37,240 bases of DNA from Vicinamibacteria bacterium (lineage in GTDB: Bacteria > Acidobacteriota > Vicinamibacteria > Fen-336): the NCBI GenBank assembly GCA_039812725.1, contig JBDIBD010000003.1:1-37240 (forward strand). Direction: 5' to 3'. Within the stretch, counting starts at the first letter, position 1. Every line of letters begins with the position of its first letter. Of this stretch, positions 1 to 20,175 are shown piece by piece. Under the pieces are notes generated by a model. That model saw only the letters and a program-made list of their open reading frames with translations, did no database searches and had not been told where the DNA came from. The position numbers were made by a program, and so were the translations under genes.

Positions 1-1590
1 CGGCTGGGGGCCTTCAAGCTGGGCAACGTGGTCGGCACGCTGCTGGCCGGCGTGCTGGTGGGCCAGCTCGACGTGCGCGTGGACCCGCTGGTCAAGCTGG
101 TCTTCTTCGACCTGTTCCTGTTCGCCACCGGCTACAAGGTCGGCCCCCAGTTCTTCCGCGGGTTGAAGAAGAACGCCCTTTCGCAGGCGCTGCTCACGCT
201 GGTGCTGTGCCTGGCCAGCCTGCTGACCACCCTGCTGGCCGCGAAGGTCATGGGCTACGACTGCGGCACGGCCGCGGGGCTCCTGGCCGGGGCCTTCACC
301 GAGTCCACGGTCATCGGCACCGCCGGCAGCACCATCGCGCGGCTGCCGCTCGACGAGGCCGAGCGCACGCGCCTGCTCAACAACATCCCCGTGGCCTACG
401 CGGTCAGCTACATGGTCGGCACGACCGCCGTGGTCTGGTTCCTCTCCAGCCTGGCCCCGCGGCTGATGGGACTCGACCTGAAGGCCGAGTGCCGGCGCCT
501 GGAGGGCGAGGCGGCCGCCGCCTCGACGAGCGAGGCGGGATCGCGATCCGCCTACCGCGAGTGGGACGTGCGGGCCTACCGCCTGTCGGCCGCCTTCGCC
601 GGGCGCGCCGTCGCCGAGGTCGAGCGCTCGTTCGCGCCGGCGCGGGTCTTCGTGCAGCGGCTGCGGCGCGGGGGCGAGCTGCTCGAGGCCGCGCCCGAGA
701 CGCCGCTGCAGAAAGGCGACGTGGCCGTGATCGCCGCCCGCCGACACGTGCTGCTGGCGGATTCGGCCCCCTTCGGCGAGGAGGTCGAGGACCGCGAGCT
801 GCTCGACTTCCCCATGGCCGCGCTCGACGTGGTGGTGACGCGCCGCGAGGCGGCCGAGCGCCCGCTAGCCGAGCTGGCCGAAGAGCACGGCCGCGGCGTC
901 GTGCTGATGAAGCTGGTGCGCGGCGGCGAGGAGGTGCCCTTCGCGGCCGGGACCGTGGTCAACCGCGGCGACCTGCTGCGGCTGGCCGGGGCCCAGGCCG
1001 ACGTCGAGCGCGCCGGCCGCGCGCTGGGCTACGTCGAGCGCCCGTCGAGCGAGACCGACGTGGTCTTCGTGGGCCTCGGCATCCTGATCGGAGGGCTGAT
1101 CGGGGCCCTGACGCTGCAGGTGGGCGACCTGCCGCTCAGCCTGACCGCCAGCGGCGGCGCCCTGATCATGGGCCTGGTCTTCGGCTGGCTGCGCTCCGTG
1201 CGGCCCACCTTCGGACGCATCCCCGAGCCGGCGCTGTGGATCTTCGACACGATCGGCCTGGCCGTCTTCATCGGCTGCGTGGGGCTGGGGGCCGGGCCCA
1301 GCTTCGTCTCGGGCCTGCGCGCCACCGGCCCCGGCCTGCTGCTGGTGGGCCTGATCGTGGCCGTCACGCCGCACCTGTGCGCCGTGGCCTTCGGACGCTG
1401 GGTGCTGAAGATGAACCCCGTGCTGCTGCTGGGGGCCTGCGCGGGCGCGGGGACCACCACGGCCGCGCTGCGGGCCATCCAGGACGAGGCCGGCAGCAAG
1501 CTGCCGGTGCTGGGCTACACCGTGCCCTACGCCATCGGCAACATCCTGTTGACGGCCTGGGGACCCGTGATCGTGATGCTGATGCGCTGA
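1..1590 (+). CDS. aspT: Aspartate:alanine antiporter (AspT/YidE family), 5'-truncated by the window edge
   Basis: Frame is open from base 1 (RLGAFKLGNVVGTLL...). Two hydrophobic AspT/YidE halves (FLFATGYKVGPQFF, AGAFTESTVIG; LLLGACAGAGTTTAAL, GYTVPYAIGNILLT) flank two TrkA-C-like soluble domains. Confidence 0.85.
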   Translation, partial: RLGAFKLGNVVGTLLAGVLVGQLDVRVDPLVKLVFFDLFLFATGYKVGPQFFRGLKKNALSQALLTLVLCLASLLTTLLAAKVMGYDCGTAAGLLAGAFTESTVIGTAGSTIARLPLDEAERTRLLNNIPVAYAVSYMVGTTAVVWFLSSLAPRLMGLDLKAECRRLEGEAAAASTSEAGSRSAYREWDVRAYRLSAAFAGRAVAEVERSFAPARVFVQRLRRGGELLEAAPETPLQKGDVAVIAARRHVLLADSAPFGEEVEDRELLDFPMAALDVVVTRREAAERPLAELAEEHGRGVVLMKLVRGGEEVPFAAGTVVNRGDLLRLAGAQADVERAGRALGYVERPSSETDVVFVGLGILIGGLIGALTLQVGDLPLSLTASGGALIMGLVFGWLRSVRPTFGRIPEPALWIFDTIGLAVFIGCVGLGAGPSFVSGLRATGPGLLLVGLIVAVTPHLCAVAFGRWVLKMNPVLLLGACAGAGTTTAALRAIQDEAGSKLPVLGYTVPYAIGNILLTAWGPVIVMLMR

Positions 1591-1667
1591 GGCGCGGCGA
1601 GCTGCTCTTCCACAAGGGCCATATCCGGAGCGCGTTCCCTCGCGTCGTCTGCTGAGCGGCGCGCGCA

Positions 1668-1693
1668 GGTAACTTACCCGCCTGTTACTTCCC
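1668..1693 (+). promoter_or_regulatory. Conserved 26-bp upstream motif, copy 1 (GGTAACTTACCCGCCTGTTACTTCCC)
   Basis: Intergenic, 61 nt before ATG 1755. Identical to 3443-3468 and 23/26 identical to 8407-8432. Contains the dyad GTAAC-N10-GTTAC. Confidence 0.75.
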
Positions 1694-1754
1694 CGCCGGC
1701 GCAGCCGGGTGCACCCTCGCCCCGACGAGCCGATCGGCTCGGGGAGGAACCTCG

Positions 1755-2837
1755 ATGAAGGCAGCCACTGCCCGGCGGGCGCTGGTCGTGCTCGCGGCGC
1801 TGGGCTGGCTCGGCAGCGCACGGGCGGCCGTCCCGGACGGCACGCCGCTGCTGATCTACCTCCCGCCCGAGGCGTTGCCGCGCGGCGAGGGAGCGAACGG
1901 CTTCGTGACCGTGGGCGGCCTCTACAGCGGCGGCGGCTTCCACTGGATGCCGACCTCGGGCGTCACGGAGATCGGCGGGACCCAGGCCGTGGCGGTGGGC
2001 GCCAACGGCAGGACCATCGTCGGCAACGCCCTCGACCCGCGCGGCTTCGAGCAGGCCGCGATCTGGCAGGGCGGCAGGAACTGGCGATTGCTGGGCTCGG
2101 TCGGCGCCCAGCGGCCGTGCGACCTGCTGGTCAGCAGCACGTTCGGCGCCAGCGCCGACGCCAGCGTGATCGTGGGCCTGGCCTGGGACGGCTGCGGCTA
2201 CGCCCGCGCCTTCCGCTGGGAAGAGCAGACCGGCATGGTCGACCTGGGCACGCTGTCCGGGGGCTCGACGCGCGCCAACGGCGTCTCCGGCGACGGCCGC
2301 GTCGTGATCGGCTGGGACACGCACCCGACCGGGTTTCGGCAGGGGGCCAAGTGGGTGGACGGCCGGGGCGAGCTGATCCGCGGCCCGGCCGGCTTCGTGG
2401 GCGAGGCCTTCGGCGCCAACCGCGACGGCTCGATCATCGTGGGCACCAACTGCAACCCGAACGACCCCACTCCCACGGGCTGGACCTGGACCGCCTCCGG
2501 CGGCCTGACCTGCTCGACGCTGCGGCTGCCGGCCTGGGCGGTGCCGGTTCCGTTCTACCAGGTGCTGATGGAGGCCGTCAGCGACGACGGCCGCGTGATC
2601 GGCGGCTCGCTCTCCTTCGGCCTCGACGCCGAGTCGGCGGTCTGGTTCGACGGCGAGCCGTTCGTGCTGCGCGACTACCTGCGCAGCCACGGCGTGCCCG
2701 ACGCGTTCGAGGGCTGGGTCAACACGGGCTTCGTCACGGACGTGTCGGCCGACGGGCGCACGCTGGTCGGCCACGGCGCGGGGCCGCGCACCTTCCAGGG
2801 CTTCGTCGTGATCCTGCCCGAGCTGGGGAAGAAGTGA
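1755..2837 (+). CDS. Exported HAF-repeat-like beta-propeller protein
   Basis: SD GGAGG upstream and an N-terminal signal peptide (..SARA-AV). Repeats of the type DLGTLSGGSTRANGVSGDGRVVIG, ASADASVIVG and VSADGRTLVG. Confidence 0.7.
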   Translation: MKAATARRALVVLAALGWLGSARAAVPDGTPLLIYLPPEALPRGEGANGFVTVGGLYSGGGFHWMPTSGVTEIGGTQAVAVGANGRTIVGNALDPRGFEQAAIWQGGRNWRLLGSVGAQRPCDLLVSSTFGASADASVIVGLAWDGCGYARAFRWEEQTGMVDLGTLSGGSTRANGVSGDGRVVIGWDTHPTGFRQGAKWVDGRGELIRGPAGFVGEAFGANRDGSIIVGTNCNPNDPTPTGWTWTASGGLTCSTLRLPAWAVPVPFYQVLMEAVSDDGRVIGGSLSFGLDAESAVWFDGEPFVLRDYLRSHGVPDAFEGWVNTGFVTDVSADGRTLVGHGAGPRTFQGFVVILPELGKK

Positions 2838-3427
2838 TGCGCTCCCTCGCGACGGCCCTGTTCCTCCTCACTGCGGCCCCCGCCTGGGGCCAGGCCTTCG
2901 AGGCCGCCCTCCTGGGCGGCTTCGCCACGCCGGGCGGCCTCGACCCGCAGGCCGCAGGCATCACGAAGCTCCGGCTCGACGGCGGCTTCACCTGGGGCGC
3001 CAGCGCCGGCTGGCACTTCTCGCCCCGCCTGGGGGCCGAGGTCTCGTGGACGCGCCAGGAGAGCGCGCTCTCCATCGGCACCGCGCGCGGCCAGGCCGAG
3101 ATGTTCGAGGTGGACCTGGACCAGCTCCAGGCCAGCCTGGTCTGGCGGTTCGGCCGGGCCCAGGCCCGCCTCCGGCCGTTCGTCAGCGCGGGGCTCGGGG
3201 CGGCCTTCCTCAGCGGCCCCGACCTGGAGGGCGAGACCAAGCTGGCTCTGAACCTGGGCGCGGGCCTCCAGTGGCTCCCGGCGCGGCGGTTCGGGGCCCG
3301 CCTGCAGGCCCGCTACGCCCCCACGTTCCTGAACGACTCGGGCTCGGACTACTGCGACCCGTTCGGCTTCTGCCAGTCGTGGCTGCACCAGCTCGAGCTG
3401 ACCGGCGGGGTGGTCGTGAGGTTCTGA
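2837..3427 (+). CDS. Outer-membrane beta-barrel protein (8-stranded OmpA/OMP_b-brl-like), 196 aa
   Basis: TGATG overlap with the previous gene and signal peptide MRSLATALFLLTAAPAWG. Amphipathic strands (RPFVSAGLG) and a C-terminal Phe (VVRF). Confidence 0.75.
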   Translation: MRSLATALFLLTAAPAWGQAFEAALLGGFATPGGLDPQAAGITKLRLDGGFTWGASAGWHFSPRLGAEVSWTRQESALSIGTARGQAEMFEVDLDQLQASLVWRFGRAQARLRPFVSAGLGAAFLSGPDLEGETKLALNLGAGLQWLPARRFGARLQARYAPTFLNDSGSDYCDPFGFCQSWLHQLELTGGVVVRF

Positions 3428-3442
3428 ACGGCGGCCTGCAAC

Positions 3443-3468
3443 GGTAACTTACCCGCCTGTTACTTCCC
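3443..3468 (+). promoter_or_regulatory. Conserved 26-bp upstream motif, copy 2
   Basis: Identical to 1668-1693. Followed by a -10-like CATCGT at 3488-3493. Confidence 0.75.
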
Positions 3469-3503
3469 TGGCGAGGTCCTCCGGGTCCATCGTACGCCCC
3501 GTA

Positions 3504-3720
3504 CGTCATCCTGAGGAGCACCGCCCGGCCCGGCGACGAAGGACCTGATCGTCCAGCGTCGCCGAAGGCGACTCGAAGACGACAGCCGATCGTCCAGCGT
3601 CGCCGAAGGCGCCTCGAAGACGACAGCCGATCGTCACGCGTCGTCGAGAGCGGCTCGACGACGACGAGCCAGACCGGCAGGTCCTTCGCTTCCGGCCGGA
3701 CGGCGTCGCTCAGGATGACG
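3504..3720. repeat. CGTC-type REP-like palindromic element with an internal 41-bp tandem array
   Basis: Terminal inverted repeats CGTCATCCTGAG (3504-3515) / CTCAGGATGACG (3709-3720). Inner inverted repeats CGAAGGACCTG (3537-3547) / CAGGTCCTTCG (3678-3688). 41-bp units at 3547-3587 and 3588-3628 (1 mismatch), plus a degenerate third unit at 3629-3670. Confidence 0.85.
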
Positions 3721-3779
3721 GGGGGTTGGAGCAACTCCCGGAGCGCCCGTCGGCGCCCGGCCCGCAGACTGGAGCGATC

Positions 3780-5390
3780 ATGGAGCCCAAGCACGCCATC
3801 GCAGCGCCTCCCCTGCCGACGGAGGCGGAGCTGGTCCCGACCGAACTGCCGCCGGGCGTCGACCGCCGCACGTTCATGATGCGCAGCGCCGTCATCGGCT
3901 CGGCCGTGGTCATCACGGGGTCGCCCCTTTCGCCGGCGCAGCAGGCCGCGGCCGCCGCGGCGCCGCCGTCGACGCCGGTCCAGGGGCTGTCGCCCGCGCT
4001 GGACGTGGTCAAGAAGTCCAAGGGCCCGGTCATGACCGTGGTCGACGAGTTCTACAAGGTCGGCCCGGGGCCCTCCAGCTCCCACACCATCGGCCCGATG
4101 CGCATCACCTACGACTTCTACCAGCGCTGCACGAAGCTGCCCCCGGCGACGCTGGCCAAGGCCACGGCCCTCAAGGTCCACCTGTTCGGCAGCCTGAGCG
4201 CCACCGGCAAGGGCCACGGCACCGAGCGCGCCGCCCTGGCCGGCATCGTGGGCAAGGAGCCGGCCACGGTCGAGCCGGCCTTCCTGGACGAGCTGGCCGC
4301 CAAGCCCGACCAGACCTTCACCGTGAAGCTCGGCGACAAGTCCTTCCCGGTCTCGCTGAAGGACGTCGTCTACGACGCGCCGAAGGGCGACTTCCCGCAC
4401 CCGAACACCATGACGTGCAAGCTCATGGGCGGCGAGGCGGTGCTGCTCGAGCAGGAGTACTACTCGGTCGGTGGCGGCTTCATCGAGTGGAAGGGCTACG
4501 AGCCGCCGAAGAAGGGCGCGCCGAAGTACCCCTACGCCACCATGAAGGAGCTGCAGGCCCACGCGGCGGCGAACAAGCTCTCGATCGCCCAGGTGCTGAT
4601 GGCCAACGAGGTCGCGGTCTCGGGTCGGAGCGAGGCCGAGGTCAATGCCTTCCTCGACAAGATCGCCACGGCCATGGTCAACATCGTCAAGTCGGGGCTG
4701 GCGGCGCCGCCCGCCACGCTGCCCGGCCCGATCAAGCTCAGGACCAAGGCCGGCGAGGTCTACAGGCGCGCCATGGACGACACGTTCGTGGGCCAGCGCG
4801 GCGTGGGCGTGGTCTCGGCCTATGCCCTGGCGGGCTCCGAGGAGAACGCCCGCGGCCACCTGGTCGTGACGGCGCCCACGGGCGGGTCGGCCGGGGTCAT
4901 CCCGGCCCTCGTCTACGTGCTCGGCGAGGGCGGCCGCAAGCTGCCCCAGGAGAAGATCCGCGCCGGCCTGCTGGCGGCGGCCGGCATCGGCTACCTGTGC
5001 AAGCACAACGCCACCCTGGCCGGGGCCGAGGGCGGCTGCCAGGCCGAGATCGGCGTGGCCTCGGCGATGGGGGCGGCCCTCATCGCCCAGGCCCACGACT
5101 TCGACCACCAGGTCGTCGCCAACGCCGCCGAGTCGGCCCTCGAGCACCACCTCGGCCTGACCTGCGACCCGGTGGCCGGCTTCGTGCAGGTGCCCTGCAT
5201 CGAGCGCTGCGCCTACGGCGCCGTCAAGGCCTGGACGGGCTTCATGATCGCGAGCAACGAGATCCCGGCCGCCCGGCGCGTGGACTTCGACACCACCGTC
5301 GAGGCCATGGCCCTGACCGCCAAGGAGATGAACTCCAAGTACAAGGAGACCTCCGAGGGCGGGCTGGCCGTCTCGCTGGTGCTCTGCTGA
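3780..5390 (+). CDS. sdaA: Fe-S dependent L-serine ammonia-lyase (single chain) with a twin-arginine N-terminal extension, 536 aa
   Basis: Motifs GPSSSHTIGPM, GSLSATGKGHGT, YSVGGGF, EENA, VTAPTGG and the Cys ligands GGCQAE / LTCDP / VPCIER, plus KYKETSEGGLA. SD GGAG before ATG 3780. Leader contains DRRTFMMRSAVIGSAVVITG. Confidence 0.9.
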   Translation: MEPKHAIAAPPLPTEAELVPTELPPGVDRRTFMMRSAVIGSAVVITGSPLSPAQQAAAAAAPPSTPVQGLSPALDVVKKSKGPVMTVVDEFYKVGPGPSSSHTIGPMRITYDFYQRCTKLPPATLAKATALKVHLFGSLSATGKGHGTERAALAGIVGKEPATVEPAFLDELAAKPDQTFTVKLGDKSFPVSLKDVVYDAPKGDFPHPNTMTCKLMGGEAVLLEQEYYSVGGGFIEWKGYEPPKKGAPKYPYATMKELQAHAAANKLSIAQVLMANEVAVSGRSEAEVNAFLDKIATAMVNIVKSGLAAPPATLPGPIKLRTKAGEVYRRAMDDTFVGQRGVGVVSAYALAGSEENARGHLVVTAPTGGSAGVIPALVYVLGEGGRKLPQEKIRAGLLAAAGIGYLCKHNATLAGAEGGCQAEIGVASAMGAALIAQAHDFDHQVVANAAESALEHHLGLTCDPVAGFVQVPCIERCAYGAVKAWTGFMIASNEIPAARRVDFDTTVEAMALTAKEMNSKYKETSEGGLAVSLVLC

Positions 5391-5423: not shown

Positions 5424-6665
5424 GTGAGCAACGGCGCCAAGGCGGCGGGCGTGGCGTGGCTGGTCACGGCCGTCTATTACTTCTACCAGTACACGCTGCG
5501 CTCGGCGCCGGCCGTCATGATGCCGCAGCTCACCGAGGCCTTCGGCCTGAGCGCCATGGGCGTGGCGTCGATGGTGGGCCTCTTCTACTGGGGCTACTCG
5601 CCCTTCAGCCTGGTGGCCGGCGTGGCCATGGACCGGCTGGGTCCGCGCCGCGTCGTTCCCCTGGGCGCCGCCGCGGTCGGGCTGGGCGCGCTCCTCTTCG
5701 CCTCGGGCGACCAGCAGCTCGCCAGCCTGGGGCGCCTGCTGCAGGGGGCCGGTGGCGTCTTCGCGCTGGTGGGGGCGGTCTACATCGCCTCCACCGGCTT
5801 CCCCGCCTCGCGCGCGGCCACTCTGATCGGGGCCACGCAGATGTTCGGCATGGCCGGCGGCTCGGCCGGCCAGTTCGTGGTCGGGCCCGTGATGGGCGCC
5901 GGGGTCCCCTGGAGCCGCTTCTGGATCTTCATGGGCTTGGCCGGCCTGGCGATCGGCGGCGCGCTCTACGCGATGCTGCCGGCCCAGGAAGAAAGGCAGC
6001 ACGGTCGCGACTGGCTGGGCGAGGCCCTGCGGGCGCTGGGCACGGTGCTGCGCAACCCCCAGTCGCTGCTGTGCGGGATGATCGCGGGCCTGCTGTTCAT
6101 CCCCACCACCATCTTCGACATGATCTGGGGCGTGCGCTACCTGCAGGAGGCGCGCGGCTACGAGTACGCCTCGGCCGTGATGCGCTCGGCCACGGTGCCG
6201 CTGGGCTGGATGATCGGTTGTCCTCTGCTCGGGCTCGTGTCGGACCGGCTGGGGCGCCGCAAGCCGGTCATCGCGGGGGGCGGCCTGGTGCTGCTGGGCT
6301 GCCTGGCCTTCATCCTGTACGGACCGGCCGAGGTGCTGCCGCCCTACCTGCTGGGAATCGTGGCGGGCGTGGCCTCCGGGGCGGCCATGCTGCCCTACAC
6401 TGTCATCAAGGAGGCCAACCCGCCCGAGCTGGGCGGCACGGCCACCGGAGTGGTCAACTTCCTCAACTTCACCTTCAGCGCCCTGCTGGGTCCGGTCTTC
6501 GGCTGGATCCTCAGGAGCGTGTCCGGCGGGGCCGGCGCGATGTCGCTGGAGCACTACCAGACTGCCTTCGAGCCCCTGCTCTACGGAGTGGGGCTGGCCG
6601 TGCTGCTGACGCTGGTCTTGCGAGAGACCGGCGCGGCCGCGCGGCGCACGGGGGGTGCCCGATGA
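5424..6665 (+). CDS. MFS transporter
   Basis: About 12 hydrophobic segments and MFS motif A twice (GVAMDRLGPRR, GLVSDRLGRRK). SD AAGGAGG before GTG. Confidence 0.9.
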   Translation: MSNGAKAAGVAWLVTAVYYFYQYTLRSAPAVMMPQLTEAFGLSAMGVASMVGLFYWGYSPFSLVAGVAMDRLGPRRVVPLGAAAVGLGALLFASGDQQLASLGRLLQGAGGVFALVGAVYIASTGFPASRAATLIGATQMFGMAGGSAGQFVVGPVMGAGVPWSRFWIFMGLAGLAIGGALYAMLPAQEERQHGRDWLGEALRALGTVLRNPQSLLCGMIAGLLFIPTTIFDMIWGVRYLQEARGYEYASAVMRSATVPLGWMIGCPLLGLVSDRLGRRKPVIAGGGLVLLGCLAFILYGPAEVLPPYLLGIVAGVASGAAMLPYTVIKEANPPELGGTATGVVNFLNFTFSALLGPVFGWILRSVSGGAGAMSLEHYQTAFEPLLYGVGLAVLLTLVLRETGAAARRTGGAR

Positions 6666-7426
6666 ACAGACTCATGGTGTGGCTCGTCGTCGGCCTCGCG
6701 GCCGGGGCCGTCTCCGCCGACGAGGTCTACCTGAAGAGCGGCGGCAAGCTCTCCGGCAAGGTCGTCGGCCGCAGCGCCACCACCATCGAGGTCGAGGTGG
6801 GGGCCGGCAAGATCGGCGTCCCGGTCGCGAGCGTGCTGCGCGTCGAGGAGGGGCGCTCGGCCCTCCAGGAGTACGAGGAGCGCGCCGGCAAGCTGGGCGC
6901 CGGGGACGCGAGCGGCTGGGTGGCCCTGGGCGACTGGGCCACGGCCCAGGGGCTCGGCACGCAGGCCCGCGAGGCCTACCACCGGGCGCTCTCCGCCTCG
7001 CCCGGCGACCCGCGCGCCAACGCGGGCCTGGGCAACGTCCAGGTGGACGGGCGCTGGGTCAGCGAGGAGGAGGGCTACAAGGCCAAGGGCTACGTGCTCT
7101 ACGGCGGCGAGTGGATCACGCCGGCCGAGCAGGCCCGCCTCAAGCAGGAGGACGCGGCCGACCAGCAGCGCCGTCACGAGCGCGCGCAGGCCCAGGCCGC
7201 CGCGCGCGAGGCCGAGGCCCGCGCGGCCGAGGCGGAAGCCAAGGCCCGGGAGGCCGAAGCCCAGGCCGAGGAGGCCAGCGAGGGGCTGCCGCTCTGGTAC
7301 GGCTGGGGGACGGGGCCCACGGACTGGCCCGACGGCAGCGTGCGGCCCGTGCCCCCGCGTCCACCCACGCCGCCGCGGCCACCCCAGCCGCCGCAGCCGC
7401 TCAACCGGCCGGGAGGTGCCCAGTGA
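6662..7426 (+). CDS. Exported hypothetical protein (helical/TPR-like core, Ala/Glu coiled coil, Pro-rich tail), 254 aa
   Basis: ATGA overlap and signal peptide MNRLMVWLVVGLAAGAVSA-DEVYLKSGG. Typical GC3 codon bias. Confidence 0.7.
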   Translation: MNRLMVWLVVGLAAGAVSADEVYLKSGGKLSGKVVGRSATTIEVEVGAGKIGVPVASVLRVEEGRSALQEYEERAGKLGAGDASGWVALGDWATAQGLGTQAREAYHRALSASPGDPRANAGLGNVQVDGRWVSEEEGYKAKGYVLYGGEWITPAEQARLKQEDAADQQRRHERAQAQAAAREAEARAAEAEAKAREAEAQAEEASEGLPLWYGWGTGPTDWPDGSVRPVPPRPPTPPRPPQPPQPLNRPGGAQ

Positions 7427-8163
7427 GCCCCGCCATCGTGCGAACCCTTCTCGGGGCGGCCGCGCTGCTGGCGGCCCTCGCCACGCCGGCCCAGACGGTG
7501 GACGAGATCGTCGCGAAGAACCTCGCCGCTCGCGGCGGGCGCGAGGCGCTGGCGGCGGTCCACACGCTGCGCATGACCGGCCTGGCCACCGCCGGGCCCG
7601 GCCGCACCGCCATCGTGCGGCGCGAGGTGGCCCGCCCCGGCCGCATCCGCACCGAGTTCGTCTTCCAGGGGACCACGGGCGTCTACGCCTGGGACGGGAG
7701 CTCCGGCTGGAAGGTCTCGCCCCTCGACGGCAGCCTGGACGTCGAGCCCCTGTCGCCCGAAGGGGCTGCCCTCTCGGCCGAGCAGGCCGACTTCGAGGGC
7801 CCGCTGGTGGACTGGCAGGCCAAGGGCCACCGCGTCGAGCTGGTCGGAACGAGCCAGCTGCCCGGAGGGCCGGCCCACGAGCTGAAGGTCACGCTGAAGT
7901 CGGGCACCGTGCGGAAGCTCTGGATCGACGCCGCCACGGGGCAGCTGGTGCGCTCGGAGGCGGCCCGGCGCTGGCGCGGTCACGAGGTGGCGGTGGAGAC
8001 CCTCTTCGGGGACTACCAGAAGTCCGCGGGCGTGGCCTTCCCGCGCTCGATCGAGACCGGCCTGCAGGGCCGCGTGCGACGCCTGCGCATCGCCGTCGAC
8101 AGCGTGGAGGTCAACCCCGCCCTCGACGAGTCCCGCTTCCGGAGGCCGGCCGCCACGCCCTAG
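7423..8163 (+). CDS. Exported LolA-like / outer-membrane lipoprotein-sorting fold protein, 246 aa
   Basis: GTGA overlap, SD GGAGG and a signal peptide. Pattern QTVDEIVAKNLAARGG...LWIDAATGQL...DYQ..GVAFP...VEVNPALDESRF is typical of this family. Confidence 0.65.
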   Translation: MSPAIVRTLLGAAALLAALATPAQTVDEIVAKNLAARGGREALAAVHTLRMTGLATAGPGRTAIVRREVARPGRIRTEFVFQGTTGVYAWDGSSGWKVSPLDGSLDVEPLSPEGAALSAEQADFEGPLVDWQAKGHRVELVGTSQLPGGPAHELKVTLKSGTVRKLWIDAATGQLVRSEAARRWRGHEVAVETLFGDYQKSAGVAFPRSIETGLQGRVRRLRIAVDSVEVNPALDESRFRRPAATP

Positions 8164-8190
8164 TCGTCGAGCTGGACGCGCCGTCCCGAG

Positions 8191-8735: not shown

Positions 8736-10138
<1,403 letters not shown>

Positions 10139-10142
<4 letters not shown>

Positions 10143-13182: not shown

Positions 13183-14715
13183 ATGCGAGCGCGAGTGGCC
13201 GCACCCAGCACGACCACGGGACCCGCCGGGGGCCTCGCCGCCGCCCTGGCGCTGCTTCTGGCCGCGGCGCCCTCCCTCCTGGCCCAGGGGGCCGCCACCA
13301 TCGCCTGCTCGTCGAAGGCCGGCGAGCGCCAGCAGTGCCCCGCGGACACGTCCCGGGGGGTGGTGCTGGCCCGCTCGACCGGCGAGGCGCCCTGCCTGCT
13401 GGGCAAGACCTGGGGCTACGACGACCAGGGCGTGTGGGTCTCCGACGGCTGCAGCGCCGAGTTCCTGGTGCGCCGCTCCCCGGAGACCGAGGCGGAGCCG
13501 CAGGCCCCGCCCAGGAAGGAGGCGCCCTTCTACGTCCCCAACGCGGGCTTCAAGATCTTCGACGGCGACAAGGGCCAGATGTACGTGCGGCTCTTCAGCT
13601 ACGCGCGCTACCTCAACCAGAAGGGCCTCGACGAGACCTACACCGACGCCTTCGGCCGCACCCAGACGGTCAAGCTGCGCGAGGACGTCCAGCTCAACAA
13701 GTTCTTCCTGCCCTTCTCGGGCTGGTTCCTGACCCCCAAGCTGCGCTACTACCTCTACGTCTGGTCCTCCAACCCCTCCCAGGGCGACCCGGCCCAGGTG
13801 GTCGGGGCGGGCAACCTGAGCTACGTCTTCGACCGGCACGTGACCCTGGGCGCCGGCATCACCAGCCTGCCGAGCGTGCGCAGCACCGAGGGACAGTTCC
13901 CCTACTGGCTGGGGATCGACGACCGCCTGACCTCCGACGAGTTCTTCCGCGGCTCCTACACCACCGGCGTCTGGCTCAAGGGCGAGCTGTCCACCAAGGT
14001 CAAGTACATGGCCATGCTGGCCAACAACCTGAGCACGCTGGGCGTGAGCGCCTCCCAGATCGACAACACCCTCGACACCACCTCGCTCATGCTGCAGTGG
14101 CTGCCCAGCACCGGCGAGTTCGGCCTCTACGGCACCTTCGGCGACTACGACTGGCACGAGAAGCTGGCCACGCGCCTGGCCGGCCACTACACCCAGAGCA
14201 CGGAGGACAAGCAGAGCCAGCCGGGCACCAACGGCATCGAGAACAGCCAGATCCGGCTGACGGACGGCAGCGTCATCTTCACCCCCGAGCTGTTCGGGAA
14301 GGGCGTCACCGTCGAGCGCGTGAAGTACCGCATGGCCAGCGTCGACGGCGGCCTCAAGTACAAGGGGCTGTCGCTCGAGGCGGAGTACTACTGGCGCTGG
14401 CTGAGCGACTACGAGGGCCCCGGCACGGCCGGGCTGGCCGACATCGACGACCACGGCTTCCAGGTGCAGTCCTCGGCCATGCTGGTGCCCAAGACCCTGC
14501 AGGTCTACCTGAGCGGGGCGGGCATCTACGGCCGGTACGGGGACAGCTCCGAGGTCCGTGCCGGCGCCAACTGGTACCCCGCCCGGGAGCGGGGCTTCCG
14601 CGTCAACGGCGAGTGGCTCCACCTGAACAAGTGCCCGGTCGGCTACACGGCCGTCCCCTACCCCGTGGGCGGGAACGGCGACGTCTTCCACGTCAACCTC
14701 GAGATGAACTTCTGA
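13183..14715 (+). CDS. Outer-membrane porin-like protein with an N-terminal Cys-rich DUF3011-like domain
   Basis: Signal peptide and a 4-Cys module (IACSS..ERQQCPADTSRGV.L.....PC..GKTWGYD..GVWVSDGCSAEF). Aromatic-rich amphipathic strands ending LEMNF. Confidence 0.65.
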   Translation: MRARVAAPSTTTGPAGGLAAALALLLAAAPSLLAQGAATIACSSKAGERQQCPADTSRGVVLARSTGEAPCLLGKTWGYDDQGVWVSDGCSAEFLVRRSPETEAEPQAPPRKEAPFYVPNAGFKIFDGDKGQMYVRLFSYARYLNQKGLDETYTDAFGRTQTVKLREDVQLNKFFLPFSGWFLTPKLRYYLYVWSSNPSQGDPAQVVGAGNLSYVFDRHVTLGAGITSLPSVRSTEGQFPYWLGIDDRLTSDEFFRGSYTTGVWLKGELSTKVKYMAMLANNLSTLGVSASQIDNTLDTTSLMLQWLPSTGEFGLYGTFGDYDWHEKLATRLAGHYTQSTEDKQSQPGTNGIENSQIRLTDGSVIFTPELFGKGVTVERVKYRMASVDGGLKYKGLSLEAEYYWRWLSDYEGPGTAGLADIDDHGFQVQSSAMLVPKTLQVYLSGAGIYGRYGDSSEVRAGANWYPARERGFRVNGEWLHLNKCPVGYTAVPYPVGGNGDVFHVNLEMNF

Positions 14716-14729
14716 GCGAGGGACGAGCG

Positions 14730-15824
14730 ATGCGCGAGACATGCACGACGCGACGCCGCCTCCCGGCCCTGGCCGGGCTGGTGGCGGCGCTGGCGGCGCC
14801 GGCCCTCGTGGCCGCGCAGGCCGCGGGCCCGGGGGCCTCTACCTACCTGGTCCACGACGCCCACTTCCACCTGACCAACTACGTCCAGCAGGGGACCGAC
14901 GTCCGCGAGTTCCTGAAGATCATGGGGACCAAGGTCGGGCGCTCGACCCTCTTCGGCATCCCCCTGCAGCAGACCTGGTCCTACGGCAACACGGGCGACT
15001 TCGCCCCGACCTACTACCTGCAGACCGACGCGCCGCTCTACTACTACTCGTTCACCGACGCCTCCATCGCGATGGCCTACAAGTCGCTGACGAAGGAGGA
15101 GCAGGCGCGCCTCGACCCGATGATCACGGGCTTCAACCCGGCCGACATGTACGCGGTCGACCACATCCAGCGCGTGCTGCGGACCTTCCCGGGCGTCTTC
15201 TCGGGCATCGGCGAGTTCACCATCCACAAGGAGTTCGTCTCGGCCAAGATCGCCGGCGAGACCGCCAGCCTCACCAACCCGGCCCTCGACCGCATCCTCG
15301 ACTTCGCGGGCGAAGCGGGGCTGGTGGTGATCCTCCACAACGACGTCGACACGCCCTTCCCGAAGCCGGGCCAGGATCCCTACCAGGTGGTGCAGCTGGC
15401 GCAGCTCCTGCGACGCCACCCACAGGCCACGGTCGTCTGGGCCCACTGTGGGCTGGGCCGGATCGTGCGTCCGGTGGCGGACCAGGTCGGCATGGTCGCG
15501 CGCGCCCTGGCCGACCCGAGCCTGTCGCACGTGTACTTCGACATCTCGTGGGACGAGACCGCCAAGTACCTGGTGGCCACGCCCGAGACGGTGCAGCAGG
15601 CGGCCGACCTGATCAACCGCTACCCCGACCGGTTCCTGTTCGGGACCGACGAGGTCGCGCCGAAGGACCAGGCCGGCTACCTGAAGGTCTACGACCTCTA
15701 CGCGCCGCTGTTCGCCAGGCTGACACCGGAGGCCAGCCACAAGCTGCGGCTGGGCAACTACGAGCGACTCTTCGACCAGGCCCGGCTTCGGGTCCGTGCC
15801 TGGGAACGGGCCAACCCGAAGTGA
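14730..15824 (+). CDS. Exported amidohydrolase (TIM-barrel metallohydrolase, Amidohydro_2-like), 364 aa
   Basis: Metal motifs HDAHFH, GIGEF, LHND, WAHCG and FLFGTD. Leader MRETCTTRRRLPALAGLVAALAAPALVAAQA. Confidence 0.8.
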   Translation: MRETCTTRRRLPALAGLVAALAAPALVAAQAAGPGASTYLVHDAHFHLTNYVQQGTDVREFLKIMGTKVGRSTLFGIPLQQTWSYGNTGDFAPTYYLQTDAPLYYYSFTDASIAMAYKSLTKEEQARLDPMITGFNPADMYAVDHIQRVLRTFPGVFSGIGEFTIHKEFVSAKIAGETASLTNPALDRILDFAGEAGLVVILHNDVDTPFPKPGQDPYQVVQLAQLLRRHPQATVVWAHCGLGRIVRPVADQVGMVARALADPSLSHVYFDISWDETAKYLVATPETVQQAADLINRYPDRFLFGTDEVAPKDQAGYLKVYDLYAPLFARLTPEASHKLRLGNYERLFDQARLRVRAWERANPK

Positions 15825-15838
15825 CCCAGGAGGGAATC

Positions 15839-17113
15839 GTGGACAAGAGACGGACGGCAGGACTGCTGGCGGCCCTCGCCTTCGCGGCGGCCGCAGGGGC
15901 GTCGCCGGCGCTGGCAGACGAGGCCCAGGCGGCGCCCGCGCCGGCGCCGGCCCCGAGCCCGGCCGCCGAGCCCGCCCAGGGCGAGGCCAAGCCGCGCCTC
16001 GACGTCTACGGCTTCGCCATGCTCGACATGGGCTACCAGTCGAAGCAGAACGACCCCAACTGGTTCGACGTGCTGCGGCCCACCAAGCTGCCGGCCTACG
16101 AGAACCAGTTCGGCGAGGACGGGCGCTTCTTCGCCGGGGTGCGCCAGAGCCGGCTGGGGGTCAAGGGCTTCATCCCCACCGGCGCCGGCGAGGTCAAGAC
16201 CATCTTCGAGTTCGAGCTGTTCGGCACCGGCGTGGACGCGGGCCAGACCACCTTCCGCCTGCGCCACGCCTGGGGCGAGCTGGGCAAGGTCGGGGCGGGG
16301 CAGACCTGGAGCCCGTTCATGGACATCGACGTCTTCCCCAACTCGGTCGAGTACTGGGGACCGAACGGCATGGTCTTCTTCCGCAACGTGCAGCTGCGCT
16401 TCACCCCCTGGTCGAAGGGCGACTCGCGGCTGGCCATCGCCCTCGAGCGTCCCGGCGCCAGCGCCGACCAGGGCGTCTACGCCGGCCGCATCGAGCTCGA
16501 GGGCGTGACGGGCCGCTTCCCGCTGCCCGACCTGTCGGCCCACTTCCGCAAGGCCGGCGGCTGGGGCCACCTGCAGCTCTCCGGCATCGTGCGCAAGATG
16601 AAGTGGGACGACACCAACGGCGACCGCTTCGACCTGAGCGGCGAGGCCACGGGCTGGGGCCTGCACGCCAGCTCGAACGTCAAGCTGGGCAGGCACGTGG
16701 CGCGCATGTCGGTGGTCTACGGCGAGGGCATCCAGAACTACATGAACGACGCCCCGGTGGACGTCGGCGTCCAGAACAACTTCTCGAACCCGGTCACGCC
16801 GGTGGTGGGCAAGGCCCTGCCGCTGCTGGGCGTGGTGGCCTTCCTCGACCTCAACTGGAACGCCAAGTGGACCAGCACGGTGGGCTACTCCTACCTGGAC
16901 ATCGACAACAGCGACGGGCAGGCCGCCGACGCCTTCAAGACGGGCCAGTACGCGCTGGCCAACGTGCTCTACTATCCCGCCCCCAACGTGTTCCTCGGAC
17001 CGGAGATCCAGTGGGGCAAGCGCGAGAACTACCGCGACGGCTTCACCTCGGACGACTTCCGCATCCAGTTCTCGGCCAAGTACAACTTCAAGCTCTCCCT
17101 GGGAGGCAAGTGA
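15839..17113 (+). CDS. DcaP-family outer-membrane porin, 424 aa
   Basis: SD AGGAGG before GTG and signal peptide ..SPALA-DE. Motifs VRQSRLG, FRLRHAWG, GQTWSPFMD and RIQFSAKYNF. Confidence 0.75.
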   Translation: MDKRRTAGLLAALAFAAAAGASPALADEAQAAPAPAPAPSPAAEPAQGEAKPRLDVYGFAMLDMGYQSKQNDPNWFDVLRPTKLPAYENQFGEDGRFFAGVRQSRLGVKGFIPTGAGEVKTIFEFELFGTGVDAGQTTFRLRHAWGELGKVGAGQTWSPFMDIDVFPNSVEYWGPNGMVFFRNVQLRFTPWSKGDSRLAIALERPGASADQGVYAGRIELEGVTGRFPLPDLSAHFRKAGGWGHLQLSGIVRKMKWDDTNGDRFDLSGEATGWGLHASSNVKLGRHVARMSVVYGEGIQNYMNDAPVDVGVQNNFSNPVTPVVGKALPLLGVVAFLDLNWNAKWTSTVGYSYLDIDNSDGQAADAFKTGQYALANVLYYPAPNVFLGPEIQWGKRENYRDGFTSDDFRIQFSAKYNFKLSLGGK

Positions 17114-18141
17114 TGAACCGTTCGAAGACGGCGCGGCTCCTGGCCGCGGCGCTGGCCGTGCTCGCCCTCGCGGCGCCGCTGGCCCCGGCCCAGACGCCGG
17201 CGGAGATCCAGTCGGCCCTCGACGCCGCCTACGCCAAGTACAAGGGGCTGCAGGAGGGCAAGAACGCCGACTACATCCCGGCCCTGGCCAAGGTCGACCC
17301 GAACATCTACGGCATCGCCCTGGTGACGGCCGACGGCAAGGTCTACACCGCCGGGGACGTCAAGTCCGAGGTCTCGATCCAGTCGATCTCGAAGGTCTTC
17401 ACCATGGCCAAGGTCATCGAGGAATCGGGCCCCGACGCCATCGAGAAGACCATCGGCGTGGACGCCACCGGCATGCGCTTCAACTCGATCGTGGCGGTGG
17501 AGCTCGCCCAGAAGGCCCTGGGCGGCCCCGAGATCAACCCGCTGGTCAACCCGGGCGCGATCACGGCCACGAGCATGGTCAAGGGCGCCACCCGCGACGA
17601 GATCTGGAAGAGCCTCCTGGGCTTCTACTCCGAGTTCGCCGGCCGGCCGCTGTCGGTCAACCAGGAGGTCTTCAAGTCCGAGAGCGACACCAACCAGCGC
17701 AACCAGGCCATCGGCTACCTGATGTACGCCTACGAGTTCATCAAGTCCGAGCCGCTGCGGGCCACGGACATCTACACCGAGCAGTGCTCCGTGAACGTCA
17801 ACGCCAGGGACCTGGCCGTCATGGCCGGCACGCTGGCCAACGGCGGCAAGAACCCCGTCACCGGCAAGCAGGTCATGCAGGCCGCGCACGTCCCCAACGT
17901 GCTGGCCGTGATGGCCACCGCCGGGCTCTACGACGACTCGGGCAAGTGGCTGTACCATACCGGGTTGCCCGGCAAGAGCGGCGTGGGCGGCGGCCTCATC
18001 GCGGTCTCGCCCGGGAAGTTCGGGATCGCCGTGGTCTCGCCCCCGCTCGACGAGGCCGGCAACTCCGTGCGGGCCCAGAAGGCCATCGCGGACGTCTCGA
18101 ACGCGCTCGGCGGCAACCCGCTGGCCCCGAAGGCGCGCTAG
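17113..18141 (+). CDS. glsA: Glutaminase A (serine beta-lactamase fold) with a signal peptide, 342 aa
   Basis: GKNADYIPALA, catalytic SIQSISK, NPLVNPGAI, GLYDDSG and PGKSGVGGG. TGATG overlap. Leader MNRSKTARLLAAALAVLALAAPLAPA-QT. Confidence 0.92.
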   Translation: MNRSKTARLLAAALAVLALAAPLAPAQTPAEIQSALDAAYAKYKGLQEGKNADYIPALAKVDPNIYGIALVTADGKVYTAGDVKSEVSIQSISKVFTMAKVIEESGPDAIEKTIGVDATGMRFNSIVAVELAQKALGGPEINPLVNPGAITATSMVKGATRDEIWKSLLGFYSEFAGRPLSVNQEVFKSESDTNQRNQAIGYLMYAYEFIKSEPLRATDIYTEQCSVNVNARDLAVMAGTLANGGKNPVTGKQVMQAAHVPNVLAVMATAGLYDDSGKWLYHTGLPGKSGVGGGLIAVSPGKFGIAVVSPPLDEAGNSVRAQKAIADVSNALGGNPLAPKAR

Positions 18142-18236
18142 GAAGGGCGATCTCTCGATCGTTCGCAGCAGCAACGCAGGTCCGCCCGGGACGCAAGGGG
18201 GGCACCCCACGGGCAACAGACAAGGAGAATGACCAA

Positions 18237-18902
18237 GTGATTCGCAAACTGACGTGGATGGCGGCGGTGGGCGTCCTGGCGGCCGGGGTGGCGAGCGCCC
18301 AGCAGCCCCGGGTGGAGGTCGGCGCGACGGTGGGCTACACCTCCAGCGACGGCGTGACGGGCGGACCCGTGCTGATCCCCGGCTTCGGCACCTTCGACGA
18401 GGCCAGCCCGAAGGACTCGATGTCCTGGGGCCTGCGGCTGGGCTTCATGGTCAACGACAACGTCGAGGTGGGAGCGCTCTTCAACCAGCAGAAGAGCACG
18501 ATGGAGATCAAGGGCACGTCCACGGCGGAGATCGGCGACCAGAGCGTCAACAACTACCACGGCTACGTGGCCTACAACTTCGGCGACGCCGACTCGGCGG
18601 TCCGCCCCTACTTCCTGGGCGGGCTGGGCGCGACCGACTACGGCTCGATCTCGGCCAAGCTCGGCAACCTGAGCCGCCAGATCGACGGCGGCACGCAGTT
18701 CTCCACCACCTGGGCCCTGGGCGTCAAGATCAACGCCGGCAAGAACCTCGGCCTGCGCCTGGAGGGCCGCTGGACCCCGACCTACATCAAGTCCGACGCC
18801 GAGGGCTGGTGGTGCGACCCCTACTGGGGCTGCTACGTGGTGGGCGACGCCCAGTACGCCAACCAGTTCGAGGTCTCGGGCGGGCTGCACTTCCGCTTCT
18901 AG
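18237..18902 (+). CDS. Outer-membrane beta-barrel protein (OMP_b-brl-like), 221 aa
   Basis: SD AAGGAG before GTG and signal peptide ..GVASA-QQ. Contains RPYFLGGLG and ends HFRF. Resembles 2837-3427. Confidence 0.75.
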   Translation: MIRKLTWMAAVGVLAAGVASAQQPRVEVGATVGYTSSDGVTGGPVLIPGFGTFDEASPKDSMSWGLRLGFMVNDNVEVGALFNQQKSTMEIKGTSTAEIGDQSVNNYHGYVAYNFGDADSAVRPYFLGGLGATDYGSISAKLGNLSRQIDGGTQFSTTWALGVKINAGKNLGLRLEGRWTPTYIKSDAEGWWCDPYWGCYVVGDAQYANQFEVSGGLHFRF

Positions 18903-18926
18903 CCGGTCCCGGGCGAGACCCGGCCC

Positions 18927-19114
18927 CCGTCATCCTGAAGCGACAACATCGAGATCTCCGTCATCCTGAGCGACAACGTCGAGCCCGGAGCGAAGGATCT
19001 CTCGGGTCGTACGGCCCGAGAGATCCTTCGTCGCCGGCGGGACGGCTGCTCCTCAGGATGACGACGGGCCCTCGCCTCGCGGACCGCGTCGTGCGGTGCC
19101 TGCTCGGGATGACG
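18927..19114. repeat. CGTC-type REP-like element with duplicated termini
   Basis: Core at 18959-19063 (CGTCATCCTGAG..CTCAGGATGACG) with a near-perfect 40-bp palindrome at 18991-19030. Extra left end at 18927-18957 and extra degenerate right end CTCGGGATGACG at 19103-19114. Confidence 0.85.
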
Positions 19115-19149
19115 TTCCTTCGAAGACGCGCACCCCACCCCAGGACCTC

Positions 19150-20175
19150 ATGCCCCTTGCCCGCCTGACCACGCCCGTGCTGGCCGCGCTGCTCTGGGCC
19201 TTCCCCGCCCTGGCCGTCAAGGTCGACGTGGTGCTGCTCCAGAACGGCTCGCGCGTGGTGGGCGAGATCAAGTCCATGAGCCGCGCCCGGCTCGAGCTCT
19301 CCACCGACGACATGGGCACGCTCAAGGTCGAGTGGCAGAAGGTCGCCGCCGTGACCGCCCCGGAGTTCTTCGAGGTCGAGACCATGGGCGGCCGCCTGCA
19401 CTTCGGCTCGCTGCGCCCGGGGGCCGGCGAGGGCCGGCTCGAGGTGGTTTCGAGCGACCGCGCCACCAGCCTGGCGCTGCGCGACGTGGCCCGCATCCAG
19501 CTCGTGAAGGCCCGCTTCTTCGACCGCTTCCGGGGCTCGATCGACGCCGGGGCCAGCTACACCAGCGCCTCGGAGCTGCTGCAGCTCGACCTCGACGCCG
19601 AGCTGCGCTACCGGCGCCCGCGCTACGAGCTGGCGCTGGCCGCCGACGCCGTGCTGTCGCGCCAGCCCGACGTGGAGGACACCCGGCGCGCCGCGCTGTC
19701 CGCCAGCTGGGCGCGCCTCTTCTCGAACCGTCACCGGCTGCTGGCCCAGGGGACCCTGGAGCAGAACCGGGAGCTGGGCTACGAGCTGCGCTCGAGCGTG
19801 GTCGCGGGATGGGGCTACCTGCTGGCCCGCGACTCCCACAACGAGCTGCTCGGAGGCGGCGGCCTGGCCGTGAACCGCGAGCAGCCGGTCGAGGGGCAGA
19901 CCACGACCAACGCGGAGCTGACGGCCGGCCTCAACTACGCCCGCTTCGCCTACGACTTCCCCCACACCGACGTGCAGCTCGCCGCCTTCGGCTTCCTGGG
20001 CCTCAACCAGTGGGGCCGTTTCCGGGTGGAGGCCAGCGCCAGCCTGCGCCGCGAGCTTCTGACGGACTTCTACGTGACCCTCAAGGCCTACGAGAGCTAC
20101 GACAGCGCTCCCGCCACGGCGGGGGCGCAGCGGAACGACTGGGGGCTGAGCCTTGGCGTCGGCTACAAGTTCTGA
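19150..20175 (+). CDS. DUF481-like outer-membrane beta-barrel protein, 341 aa
   Basis: Signal peptide ..AFPALA-VK and N-terminal DVVLLQNGSRVVGEIK module. Barrel strands ending LGVGYKF. Confidence 0.65.
   Translation: MPLARLTTPVLAALLWAFPALAVKVDVVLLQNGSRVVGEIKSMSRARLELSTDDMGTLKVEWQKVAAVTAPEFFEVETMGGRLHFGSLRPGAGEGRLEVVSSDRATSLALRDVARIQLVKARFFDRFRGSIDAGASYTSASELLQLDLDAELRYRRPRYELALAADAVLSRQPDVEDTRRAALSASWARLFSNRHRLLAQGTLEQNRELGYELRSSVVAGWGYLLARDSHNELLGGGGLAVNREQPVEGQTTTNAELTAGLNYARFAYDFPHTDVQLAAFGFLGLNQWGRFRVEASASLRRELLTDFYVTLKAYESYDSAPATAGAQRNDWGLSLGVGYKF

Follow-up and report, generated by a model that had tools for sequence, protein, structure and literature searches.

Predicted export of amino acid-deaminating enzymes encoded beside outer-membrane porins in a mosaic gene island of a Vicinamibacteria bacterium

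Why would a bacterium equip ammonia-releasing enzymes with export leaders and encode them beside outer-membrane porins? The question is raised by the first 37,240 bases of contig JBDIBD010000003.1 (C3; hereafter the window) of the Vicinamibacteria bacterium assembly GCA_039812725.1, a genome that is 94% complete and spread over 676 contigs. The window opens with an island of 19 co-oriented plus-strand genes (1–20906), which encodes four deaminating enzymes, an Amidohydro_2 protein, five outer-membrane barrels, three carriers and five uncharacterized proteins with predicted export leaders. On balance, and with some reserve, we favor a reading in which nitrogen is stripped from amino acids outside the cytoplasm, and the resulting carboxylates and ammonia are then taken up. 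The island itself is a mosaic of four separately conserved modules, not one integrated system.

Because the G+C content of the window is ∼72%, genes were mapped by the phase of third-position GC (GC3) rather than by the length of open reading frames. Families were called by Pfam and NCBIfam profile searches on the window proteins, with curated cut-offs. An earlier reading of the DNA sequence (the original prediction) had counted about 18 co-oriented genes up to position 20175, many of them coupled by overlapping stop and start codons. The new map bears this out and adds one gene, with overlaps of 1 or 4 nt at six junctions (g2/g3, g5/g6, g6/g7, g9/g10, g10/g11 and g15/g16, with genes numbered in order along the island). 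The same reading had recognized four ammonia-releasing enzymes, an amidohydrolase, five barrels and the carriers AspT, MFS and DASS, and every one of these families was recovered by Pfam or NCBIfam. As for the assembly, near-identical contigs in two other DNA studies span the pieces of the island.

Export leaders were scored with a simple rule, which asks for a K or R ahead of a hydrophobic 10-mer and is cruder than SignalP. By this rule, 14 soluble or outer-membrane products of the island carry a leader, and the aspartase (AspA) and the 80-aa product of g8 do not. Across 99 related loci, the rule was positive for GlsA in 84/87 cases, for the amidohydrolase in 81/88, for the asparaginase AnsB in 24/26, for the DcaP-like porin in 74/77 and for the g13 porin in 68/74. 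The leaderless AspA clade served as an internal control: the rule was negative in all five of its loci, and none of eight further AspA N-termini, read separately, had a leader. The crude rule thus agrees with the earlier claim that all of the deaminating enzymes but aspartase carry predicted leaders, and the conservation of these leaders among homologues argues that they are not start-codon noise.

The most unusual placement concerns g4 (3780–5390), which encodes a single-chain paralogue of the 4Fe-4S L-serine dehydratase SdaA with a twin-arginine (Tat) leader. The protein scores 389.1 bits against TIGR00720 (cut-off 345.1), and PF03315 and PF03313 both match the one chain. Its residues 87–536 align along the whole length of the Legionella pneumophila enzyme (PDB 4RQO, E 1.6e-84). 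Each cluster cysteine, and the Cys at the C terminus, is matched by a Cys, and we take these to be the Fe-S cluster ligands. What precedes this core is an N-terminal extension of ∼85 residues, with a twin-arginine motif ∼28 residues in, then a hydrophobic stretch, and GC3 coding signal covers the leader region. All 119 of the close homologues listed (≥80% identical, 518–555 aa) have the RR motif, and in 55 of these 119 a lipobox follows it. A survey of species genomes gave 573 confirmed SdaA matches, and neighbor counts were made on the best 80 loci. Among these 80, a strict RR pattern was present in 72 of the 78 loci that could be judged, the six misses comprising one variant residue after RR, two cases of S-R for R-R, one truncation at a contig edge, one garbled sequence and one leaderless protein. 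The S-R substitutions occur within otherwise conserved Tat leaders (L173 and L175), and the SdaA of L220 is wholly without a leader. Tat-like leaders are also found, independently, on SdaA lineages ∼42% identical in metagenome-assembled genomes (MAGs) labelled Syntrophales and Desulfovibrionaceae. The genome studied here carries a second SdaA, canonical and leaderless, on another contig (C487); it is ∼40% identical to g4.

The Tat-SdaA gene has a partner of its own. An MFS carrier gene (g5, 5424–6665, PF07690) follows g4, and a gene of this family lies immediately 3' of the SdaA homologue in 54 of the best 80 loci. At least one gene of the deamidase module lies within 10 kb in 17/80. Elsewhere, Tat-SdaA stands alongside an HAF-repeat protein (like g2), an outer-membrane protein (OMP) and an MFS carrier in one genome (G003), and alongside a g13-like porin in two others (G006 and G007).

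Near the other end of the island, a porin gene (g15, 15839–17113) is followed by one for a GlsA-family glutaminase A with a Sec-type leader (g16, 17113–18141). GlsA scores 427.6 against NF009020 (cut-off 395) and 344 against PF04960 (cut-off 27). Residues 31–335 align to residues 6–306 of Escherichia coli YbaS (PDB 1u60, E 3.5e-88), and the S-x-x-K stretch, presumably the catalytic serine-lysine motif, is identical in the two proteins. Ahead of the aligned part lies a conserved predicted leader of ∼27 aa, unlike the cytoplasmic characterized members of the family, and an N-terminus of this signal-like kind is seen in 118 of the 119 close homologues listed. The gene is single copy and is the sole glutaminase found in the genome. 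The g15 product is DcaP-like (PF19577, 61.5 versus a cut-off of 27), with a match limited to profile positions 115–224 of 410; the Flavobacterium orthologue matches positions 69–410.

Directly upstream lies a second pair of porin and enzyme. The porin, g13 (13183–14715), has an N-terminal DUF3011 domain (PF11218) and a 16-strand-type barrel over residues 117–510 or thereabouts, modelled with a pLDDT of 87.6. Its best Foldseek match is OprP (2o4v, E 6.8e-12, TMq 0.59), with general porins scoring nearly as well; no Pfam match to an OprO/OprP-type porin was obtained, and the leads from the protein atlas are Porin_O_P-like clusters. The enzyme, g14 (14730–15824), is a predicted exported TIM barrel of the Amidohydro_2 metal-hydrolase type (PF04909, 59.8 versus 26.4), whose HxH, His and Asp positions do not vary among 28 sequences. 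Its model (pLDDT 79) resembles Amidohydro_2 members with fold Z-scores of 18–22, including 21.6 to the uncharacterized structure 3cjp. The closest structures by Foldseek and VIA-align are generic Amidohydro_2 proteins, the top ones uncharacterized, and enzymes of the LigI/ACMSD type. The protein matches no characterized subfamily, and neither a sequence search of the PDB nor the protein atlas, which returned family names alone, gave a clue to its substrate. Yet this amidohydrolase is highly conserved, with 64–84% identity across phylum labels, and we flag it as an enzyme awaiting substrate assignment.

These two pairs form the most widely shared part of the island. Relatives of the amidohydrolase occur in 549 species genomes, and neighbors were counted within 10 kb of the best 80 loci. 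GlsA was present in 69 of these 80, the DcaP-like porin in 68, the g13-type porin in 67, and all three in 61; the aspartase gene was found in 19/80, ansB in 22/80, the DUF481 barrel in 20/80 and the g17-type OMP in 8/80. Seven loci had none of GlsA, the two porins, AspA or AnsB, at least two of them on contigs shorter than 2.5 kb. When loci were instead centred on GlsA, a partner adjoined it in 14/19, and GlsA stood alone in five, two of which are short or end-cut contigs. Both gene orders are seen, porin-amidohydrolase-DcaP-GlsA and DcaP-GlsA-porin-amidohydrolase, which identifies porin plus amidohydrolase and DcaP plus GlsA as the units. The record labels of the loci with this cassette, which can be wrong for MAGs, include Acidobacteriota, Gemmatimonadota, Pseudomonadota, Bacteroidota, Eisenbacteria, Latescibacteria, Zixibacteria, Verrucomicrobia, Nitrospirota and Planctomycetota. 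The Pseudomonadota include cultured Steroidobacter and Peristeroidobacter, and the Bacteroidota include Niastella, Flavobacterium and Chitinophagaceae. In Niastella yeongjuensis (L049, 1439–8393, minus strand), the ansB-aspA arm additionally contains a Porin_O_P porin, a small OMP barrel, a 375-aa protein and DUF481, so that the cassette is accompanied by extra outer-membrane barrels in another phylum as well.

The middle of the island is devoted to asparagine and aspartate. Aspartate ammonia-lyase (AspA, g9, 8736–10142) scores 705 against NF008909 (cut-off 510) and 455 against fumC_II (cut-off 665), which identifies it as an aspartase rather than a fumarase; its score against the TIGR00839 equivalog, 653, falls slightly under the cut-off of 681. 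Lacking a leader by our rule, it is predicted to be cytoplasmic. Four-nucleotide overlaps connect aspA with g10 (10139–10642), for a predicted exported protein of 167 aa, and g10 with g11 (10639–12054), for a carrier of the DASS family (TIGR00785, 300 versus 199). Downstream, g12 (12083–13147) encodes type II (periplasmic) L-asparaginase (AnsB), with a leader and a score of 432.9 against TIGR00520 (cut-off 314.3); the E. coli equivalog NF008304 was missed (434 versus 506). The best PDB matches of the DASS carrier are the chloroplast proteins DiT2.1 (E 1.2e-82) and DiT1 (E 2e-80), followed by a bacterial DASS protein. We take the DiT proteins to be glutamate/malate and 2-oxoglutarate/malate exchangers and, because these are its nearest homologues, infer that the DASS carrier may exchange Asp or Glu against fumarate or malate. 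The proposal in the original prediction that Asp is converted to fumarate, with exchange through DASS, is therefore plausible.

The first gene, g1 (1–1590), encodes an AspT-family aspartate:alanine antiporter (TIGR03802, 596 versus 547; PDB 8xw5, 'Aspartate/alanine antiporter', E 1.4e-60). Its 5' end is cut off by the start of the contig, and one public contig reaches 2.1 kb further upstream. A related genome (G013) has the order aspA-g10-DASS-ansB-aspT, and AspT adjoins AnsB there and at two other loci (L095 and L096). The g10 gene is likewise kept in G013 and at three further loci (L147, L159 and L164). In G013 (L029, contig G013:C3, 704–2083), the DASS orthologue is in four frame-shifted pieces and aspA is in two. 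These breaks in a three-contig assembly are probably sequencing errors, not decay.

In other phyla, the aspartase itself appears to be exported. Flavobacterium daemonense has a compact operon of porin, aspA, ansB, glsA, amidohydrolase and porin, in which a single start codon precedes the aspartase core, and translation from it provides a typical signal peptide; the protein scores as an aspartase by NF008909 (658 versus 510) from residue 20 on. By script, 17 of 23 cluster-linked AspAs have a leader, of which one (L083) is an artefact with a frame that runs into glsA, leaving 16. Putative leaders of this kind are found in Bacteroidota, Steroidobacteraceae, Gemmatimonadota and others, the cluster-linked examples including Niastella, Steroidobacter, Peristeroidobacter and loci labelled Gemmatimonadales, Eisenbacteria and Latescibacteria. 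Of the 120 Bacteroidota homologues listed for the Flavobacterium AspA, many of them from named cultured species, 105 pass a strict leader rule, and the other 15 also have a hydrophobic leader that ends at the same junction. The leaderless set consists of the AspAs of the window, the loci nearest the window and Bryobacteraceae, and in the nearest relatives of the window the DASS gene adjoins the leaderless aspA. We built a maximum likelihood tree of 25 AspA rows, leaving out matches with stops or not spanning query residues 12–455, and used as outgroup the genome's own fumarase-like paralogue, which has a very long branch. In this tree, all 17 leader-bearing rows group together as a single clade (support 93/100), separate from the leaderless rows, which include g9. 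These patterns suggest two solutions to what may be one task: to export the aspartase, or to keep it inside and add an exchanger.

How far does the island hold together as a whole? The full order is kept in a single other species genome, on one contig labelled Acidobacteriota (L099, identical to L147), which reads AspT, SdaA, MFS, g6, g7, g8, AspA, g10, DASS, AnsB, porin, amidohydrolase, DcaP, GlsA, OMP, DUF481. The g6/g7 pair is kept there and in L205, and g8 there and in L062; in G013, g8 lies near an OMP gene, and the segment that separates AspT from SdaA is encoded on the other strand. The idea of a single integrated system does not survive this comparison, as the modules reshuffle elsewhere. 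What the neighborhood search recovers of the predicted co-occurrence, across phylum labels, is the core of GlsA, DcaP-like porin, amidohydrolase and second porin; the 18-gene whole is not recovered.

The route that we favor, extracytoplasmic nitrogen stripping followed by uptake, would run as follows. Amides and amino acids would cross the outer membrane via dedicated anion-type porins. In the periplasm, AnsB would convert Asn to Asp, GlsA would convert Gln to Glu, and Tat-exported SdaA would convert Ser to pyruvate, with ammonia freed each time; the amidohydrolase, fed by its own OprP-like porin, would cleave a further compound. Asp, and perhaps Glu, would enter the cell through the DiT-like DASS carrier as fumarate, made by cytoplasmic AspA, leaves it. 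Pyruvate would be imported by the MFS carrier, with AspT as an extra aspartate route, and ammonia would enter by diffusion or through Amt, which is present in the genome. The pay-off would be the capture of both nitrogen and carbon from amino acids. Sister lineages may reach the same end by exporting AspA and omitting the carrier. More tentatively, and at slightly less than even confidence, we propose that many Gram-negative bacteria, spread over at least eight phylum labels, possess an extracytoplasmic route of this kind that is as yet undescribed. GlsA, an exported aspartase, Tat-SdaA and the highly conserved amidohydrolase, the last acting on an amide or lactam new to the family, would work in the periplasm and be fed through the porins encoded beside them, so that ammonia and simple carboxylates would be all that has to pass the inner membrane. 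In such a scheme, the window would represent a variant with an inside aspartase and a recruited DiT-like exchanger.

Several points weigh against this route. Export of the island enzymes is a prediction from leaders, and the leader rule is permissive in that any upstream start codon is allowed. TatA was found, but a search of the genome, 94% complete and in 676 contigs, gave no TatC; TatC is present in four of five relatives that carry Tat-SdaA. The 4Fe-4S serine dehydratase is oxygen-labile, an odd fit with the periplasm of a bacterium in activated sludge. The roles given to the three carriers and both porins are inferred, and the substrate of the amidohydrolase was not identified by sequence, structure or atlas searches. 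Since the modules recombine freely, to speak of one pathway may overstate mere co-location. The island yielded no regulator and neither a nitrogen-control nor a sigma-54 site: a search for the sigma-54 consensus with up to two mismatches gave three matches versus 5.25 expected by chance, none of which lies in the gap before g4 or in that before g8. Expression data are likewise of limited help. In one RNA library, contigs of a relative (94–98% identical) match parts of sdaA (with its leader), of aspA, the DASS gene, ansB and g13, and of the MFS/g6 and amidohydrolase/porin junctions, but neither expression level nor transcript ends can be read from them, and they may stem from DNA carry-over.

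Could the leaders be annotation or start-codon artefacts, or remnants that do not export, so that the enzymes are in fact cytoplasmic? High G+C opens long frames upstream of true starts, some cytoplasmic proteins such as NarG carry vestigial Tat motifs, and the missing TatC would fit. Nevertheless, we consider this very improbable. In low-GC Flavobacterium, the AspA core is preceded by a single start codon, and translation from it takes in the leader. The leaders keep their lengths and motifs where linkers vary, nearly half of the listed SdaA homologues add a lipobox, the GC3 signal extends over the SdaA leader, and the genome keeps a separate, leaderless SdaA. A different doubt concerns purpose. 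Glutaminase-based acid resistance is established for the cytoplasmic E. coli enzyme YbaS, and ammonia released outside the inner membrane could take up protons and protect the cell at low pH, making nutrient capture secondary. Loci with the label Acidobacteriaceae or Terriglobia often have the four-gene core. Moreover, pH homeostasis is among the roles given for ansB-aspA-dcuA in the Fig. 8 legend of PMC10634366, a paper used here in excerpt. We nonetheless regard acid buffering as unlikely to be the main function: sequencing runs of activated sludge and wastewater from several studies repeatedly contain the organism, the cassette is also present in Flavobacterium, Niastella and Steroidobacter, its carriers include non-acidophiles, and no GadC or GadB appears among the Pfam and NCBIfam matches of the window. 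No result here favors acid buffering over nutrient capture.

The remaining alternatives concern the fate of aspartate. In the original prediction, Asp made by AnsB could be imported and decarboxylated to Ala, with Ala leaving through AspT to generate proton-motive force. AspT does score above its equivalog cut-off, and it adjoins AnsB at the three loci named above. However, no match to aspartate 4-decarboxylase (AspD, TIGR03801) exceeds the cut-off in the 94% complete genome, the best scoring 44 versus 435, and the region upstream of AspT in the syntenic relative L147 contains a small open reading frame, a carbonic anhydrase and DUF2254, and no AspD. As no AspD was found, this branch is unsupported, and we give it very little credence. 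Alternatively, the Asn/Asp module might supply fumarate for respiration, with Asp/succinate antiport as by DcuA, and the exported AspA of other lineages might feed periplasm-facing reductases or fumarate uptake. The ansB-aspA-dcuA genes of Actinobacillus succinogenes are interpreted in this way (excerpts of PMC10634366), and Campylobacter jejuni respires AspA-derived fumarate (excerpts of PMC4178425). A purely respiratory role would leave GlsA, the amidohydrolase and SdaA unexplained. The Flavobacterium carriers, moreover, are aerobic, and we judge fumarate supply to be an improbable account of the cluster.

The other genes of the island add little to these assignments. Between aspT and sdaA lie g2 (1755–2837), for a predicted exported HAF-repeat protein (TIGR02913, with leader), and g3 (2837–3427), for a small outer-membrane beta-barrel (PF13505, OMP_b-brl, 40 bits), the start of which overlaps the g2 stop by 1 nt. 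Downstream of the MFS gene, g6 and g7 (6662–8163) encode two predicted exported proteins that are translationally coupled and show at most weak TPR and LolA-like matches in Pfam; upstream of aspA, g8 (8477–8719) has no family match in Pfam or NCBIfam. The 3' part of the island comprises g17 (18237–18902), a small OmpW-like barrel (PF13505, 51.7 bits), g18 (19150–20175), a DUF481 barrel (PF04338, 67.6 bits), and g19 (20358–20906), a predicted exported protein with a leader and no family match. A lenient Pfam search with g2, g6, g7, g8, g10 and g19 gave nothing above cut-offs. Tandem repeats occupy the two largest intergenic gaps: a 41-nt unit repeated three times (3547–3670) in the 352-nt gap before sdaA (3428–3779), and a 30-nt unit repeated 3.3 times (8187–8286). 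We considered these as regulatory sites and rejected the idea, the repeat family being dispersed over dozens of contigs of this genome in the manner of REP/MITE elements. No sigma-70 promoters were found, terminators were as frequent as expected (5 versus 4.7), and no Rfam family reached its gathering score.

Directly 3' of the island is a pair of genes for a ribbon-helix-helix antitoxin and a VapC/PIN toxin (20958–21637, plus strand), after which comes one further plus-strand gene. Nearby are genes for a 1044-aa M16 peptidase (23049–26183, minus strand), a fumarylacetoacetase (28660–29961, plus strand) and an AtoE-type short-chain fatty acid transporter (30044–31519, minus strand), which suggests that more amino acid and peptide catabolism is encoded beside the island. 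A 1395-aa open reading frame (31518–35705, plus strand) encodes a TopoIII-RecQ fusion, with Toprim and Topoisom_bac in residues 4–598 and DEAD, Helicase_C, RecQ_Zn_bind and HRDC in residues 744–1393. Toward the end of the window, a small reading frame (36612–37052, minus strand) contains a Tox-MPTase3 metallopeptidase-toxin domain (68.5 bits).

If extracytoplasmic nitrogen stripping is correct, enzymes that textbooks place in the cytoplasm, namely serine dehydratase, aspartase and GlsA, work in the periplasm of hundreds of soil, freshwater and sludge species. Models would then change on three points: how these bacteria draw on amino acids for nitrogen and carbon, which organisms set ammonium free in soils and treatment plants, and the selectivity of their porins. 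Because cultured Flavobacterium (F. daemonense, F. anhuiense), Niastella (N. yeongjuensis) and Steroidobacter (S. agaridevorans) carry compact cassettes, the question can be tested now.

Searches of the open literature (subscription journals and supplementary files were beyond their reach) did not find the combination of exported GlsA, Fe-S SdaA and aspartase with a conserved hydrolase and dedicated porins. For a Tat-exported serine dehydratase they gave co-mentions alone; no periplasmic GlsA with a signal peptide was found, papers joining glutaminase and DcaP dealing with AnsB-type glutaminase-asparaginase or being unrelated; an exported or periplasmic aspartase was not described in the literature searched; and for periplasmic deamidation by glutaminase, asparaginase and aspartase together the searches gave asparaginase reviews. 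The individual proteins do have characterized counterparts. E. coli GlsA1/YbaS belongs to the same family as the island glutaminase and aligns with it end to end; YbaS is cytoplasmic and works with GadC, whereas the island enzyme has a Sec-type leader and a DcaP-like porin as partner. SdaA shares its core with Legionella 4RQO and with E. coli SdaA, SdaB and TdcG, from which it differs in the ∼85-aa twin-arginine extension and the MFS partner. An AspT-family antiporter is common to the island and to the AspT/AspD (AsdA) system of Tetragenococcus halophilus, but no AspD was found here.

At the level of whole systems, the original prediction knew of no characterized system with this architecture, though it could not exclude one. 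Characterized precedents do exist, and periplasmic deamidation coupled to uptake is already a known kind of process. One precedent is ansB-aspA-dcuA of A. succinogenes (Asuc_0140-0142), with a periplasmic asparaginase II, a cytoplasmic aspartase and a dicarboxylate exchanger; in E. coli aspA-dcuA, DcuA acts as an L-aspartate/fumarate 'nitrogen shuttle' (both as given in excerpts of PMC10634366). On the excerpted account, the Asn/Asp module of the island resembles ansB-aspA-dcuA in that Asn would be converted to Asp outside, Asp brought in, and fumarate and ammonia made inside. It differs in its carrier, which is a DASS protein nearest to DiT and not of the Dcu family, and so works alike without being a member, and in the predicted exported 167-aa protein encoded between aspA and the carrier gene. 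The clusters of other phyla depart further from what the excerpts describe, with a leader-bearing AspA and no carrier encoded.

The second precedent is C. jejuni 81-176, in which AnsB, with a Sec signal, and GGT are periplasmic, and uptake by DcuA/B, DctA, Peb or GltS follows; gain of the Sec signal on AnsB widens the diet of this species (excerpts of PMC4178425). In the island, as in C. jejuni and Helicobacter pylori on this partial account, Asn and Gln would lose their amide nitrogen in the periplasm, and uptake of the resulting acidic amino acids would follow. The gain of a signal peptide that relocates a normally cytoplasmic enzyme, as for C. jejuni AnsB, is a further likeness. Unlike those two systems, so far as the excerpts describe them, the island relies on a GlsA-family serine-type glutaminase instead of GGT, places porin genes beside those for the enzymes, and adds an amidohydrolase and a Tat-type Fe-S serine dehydratase to the set.

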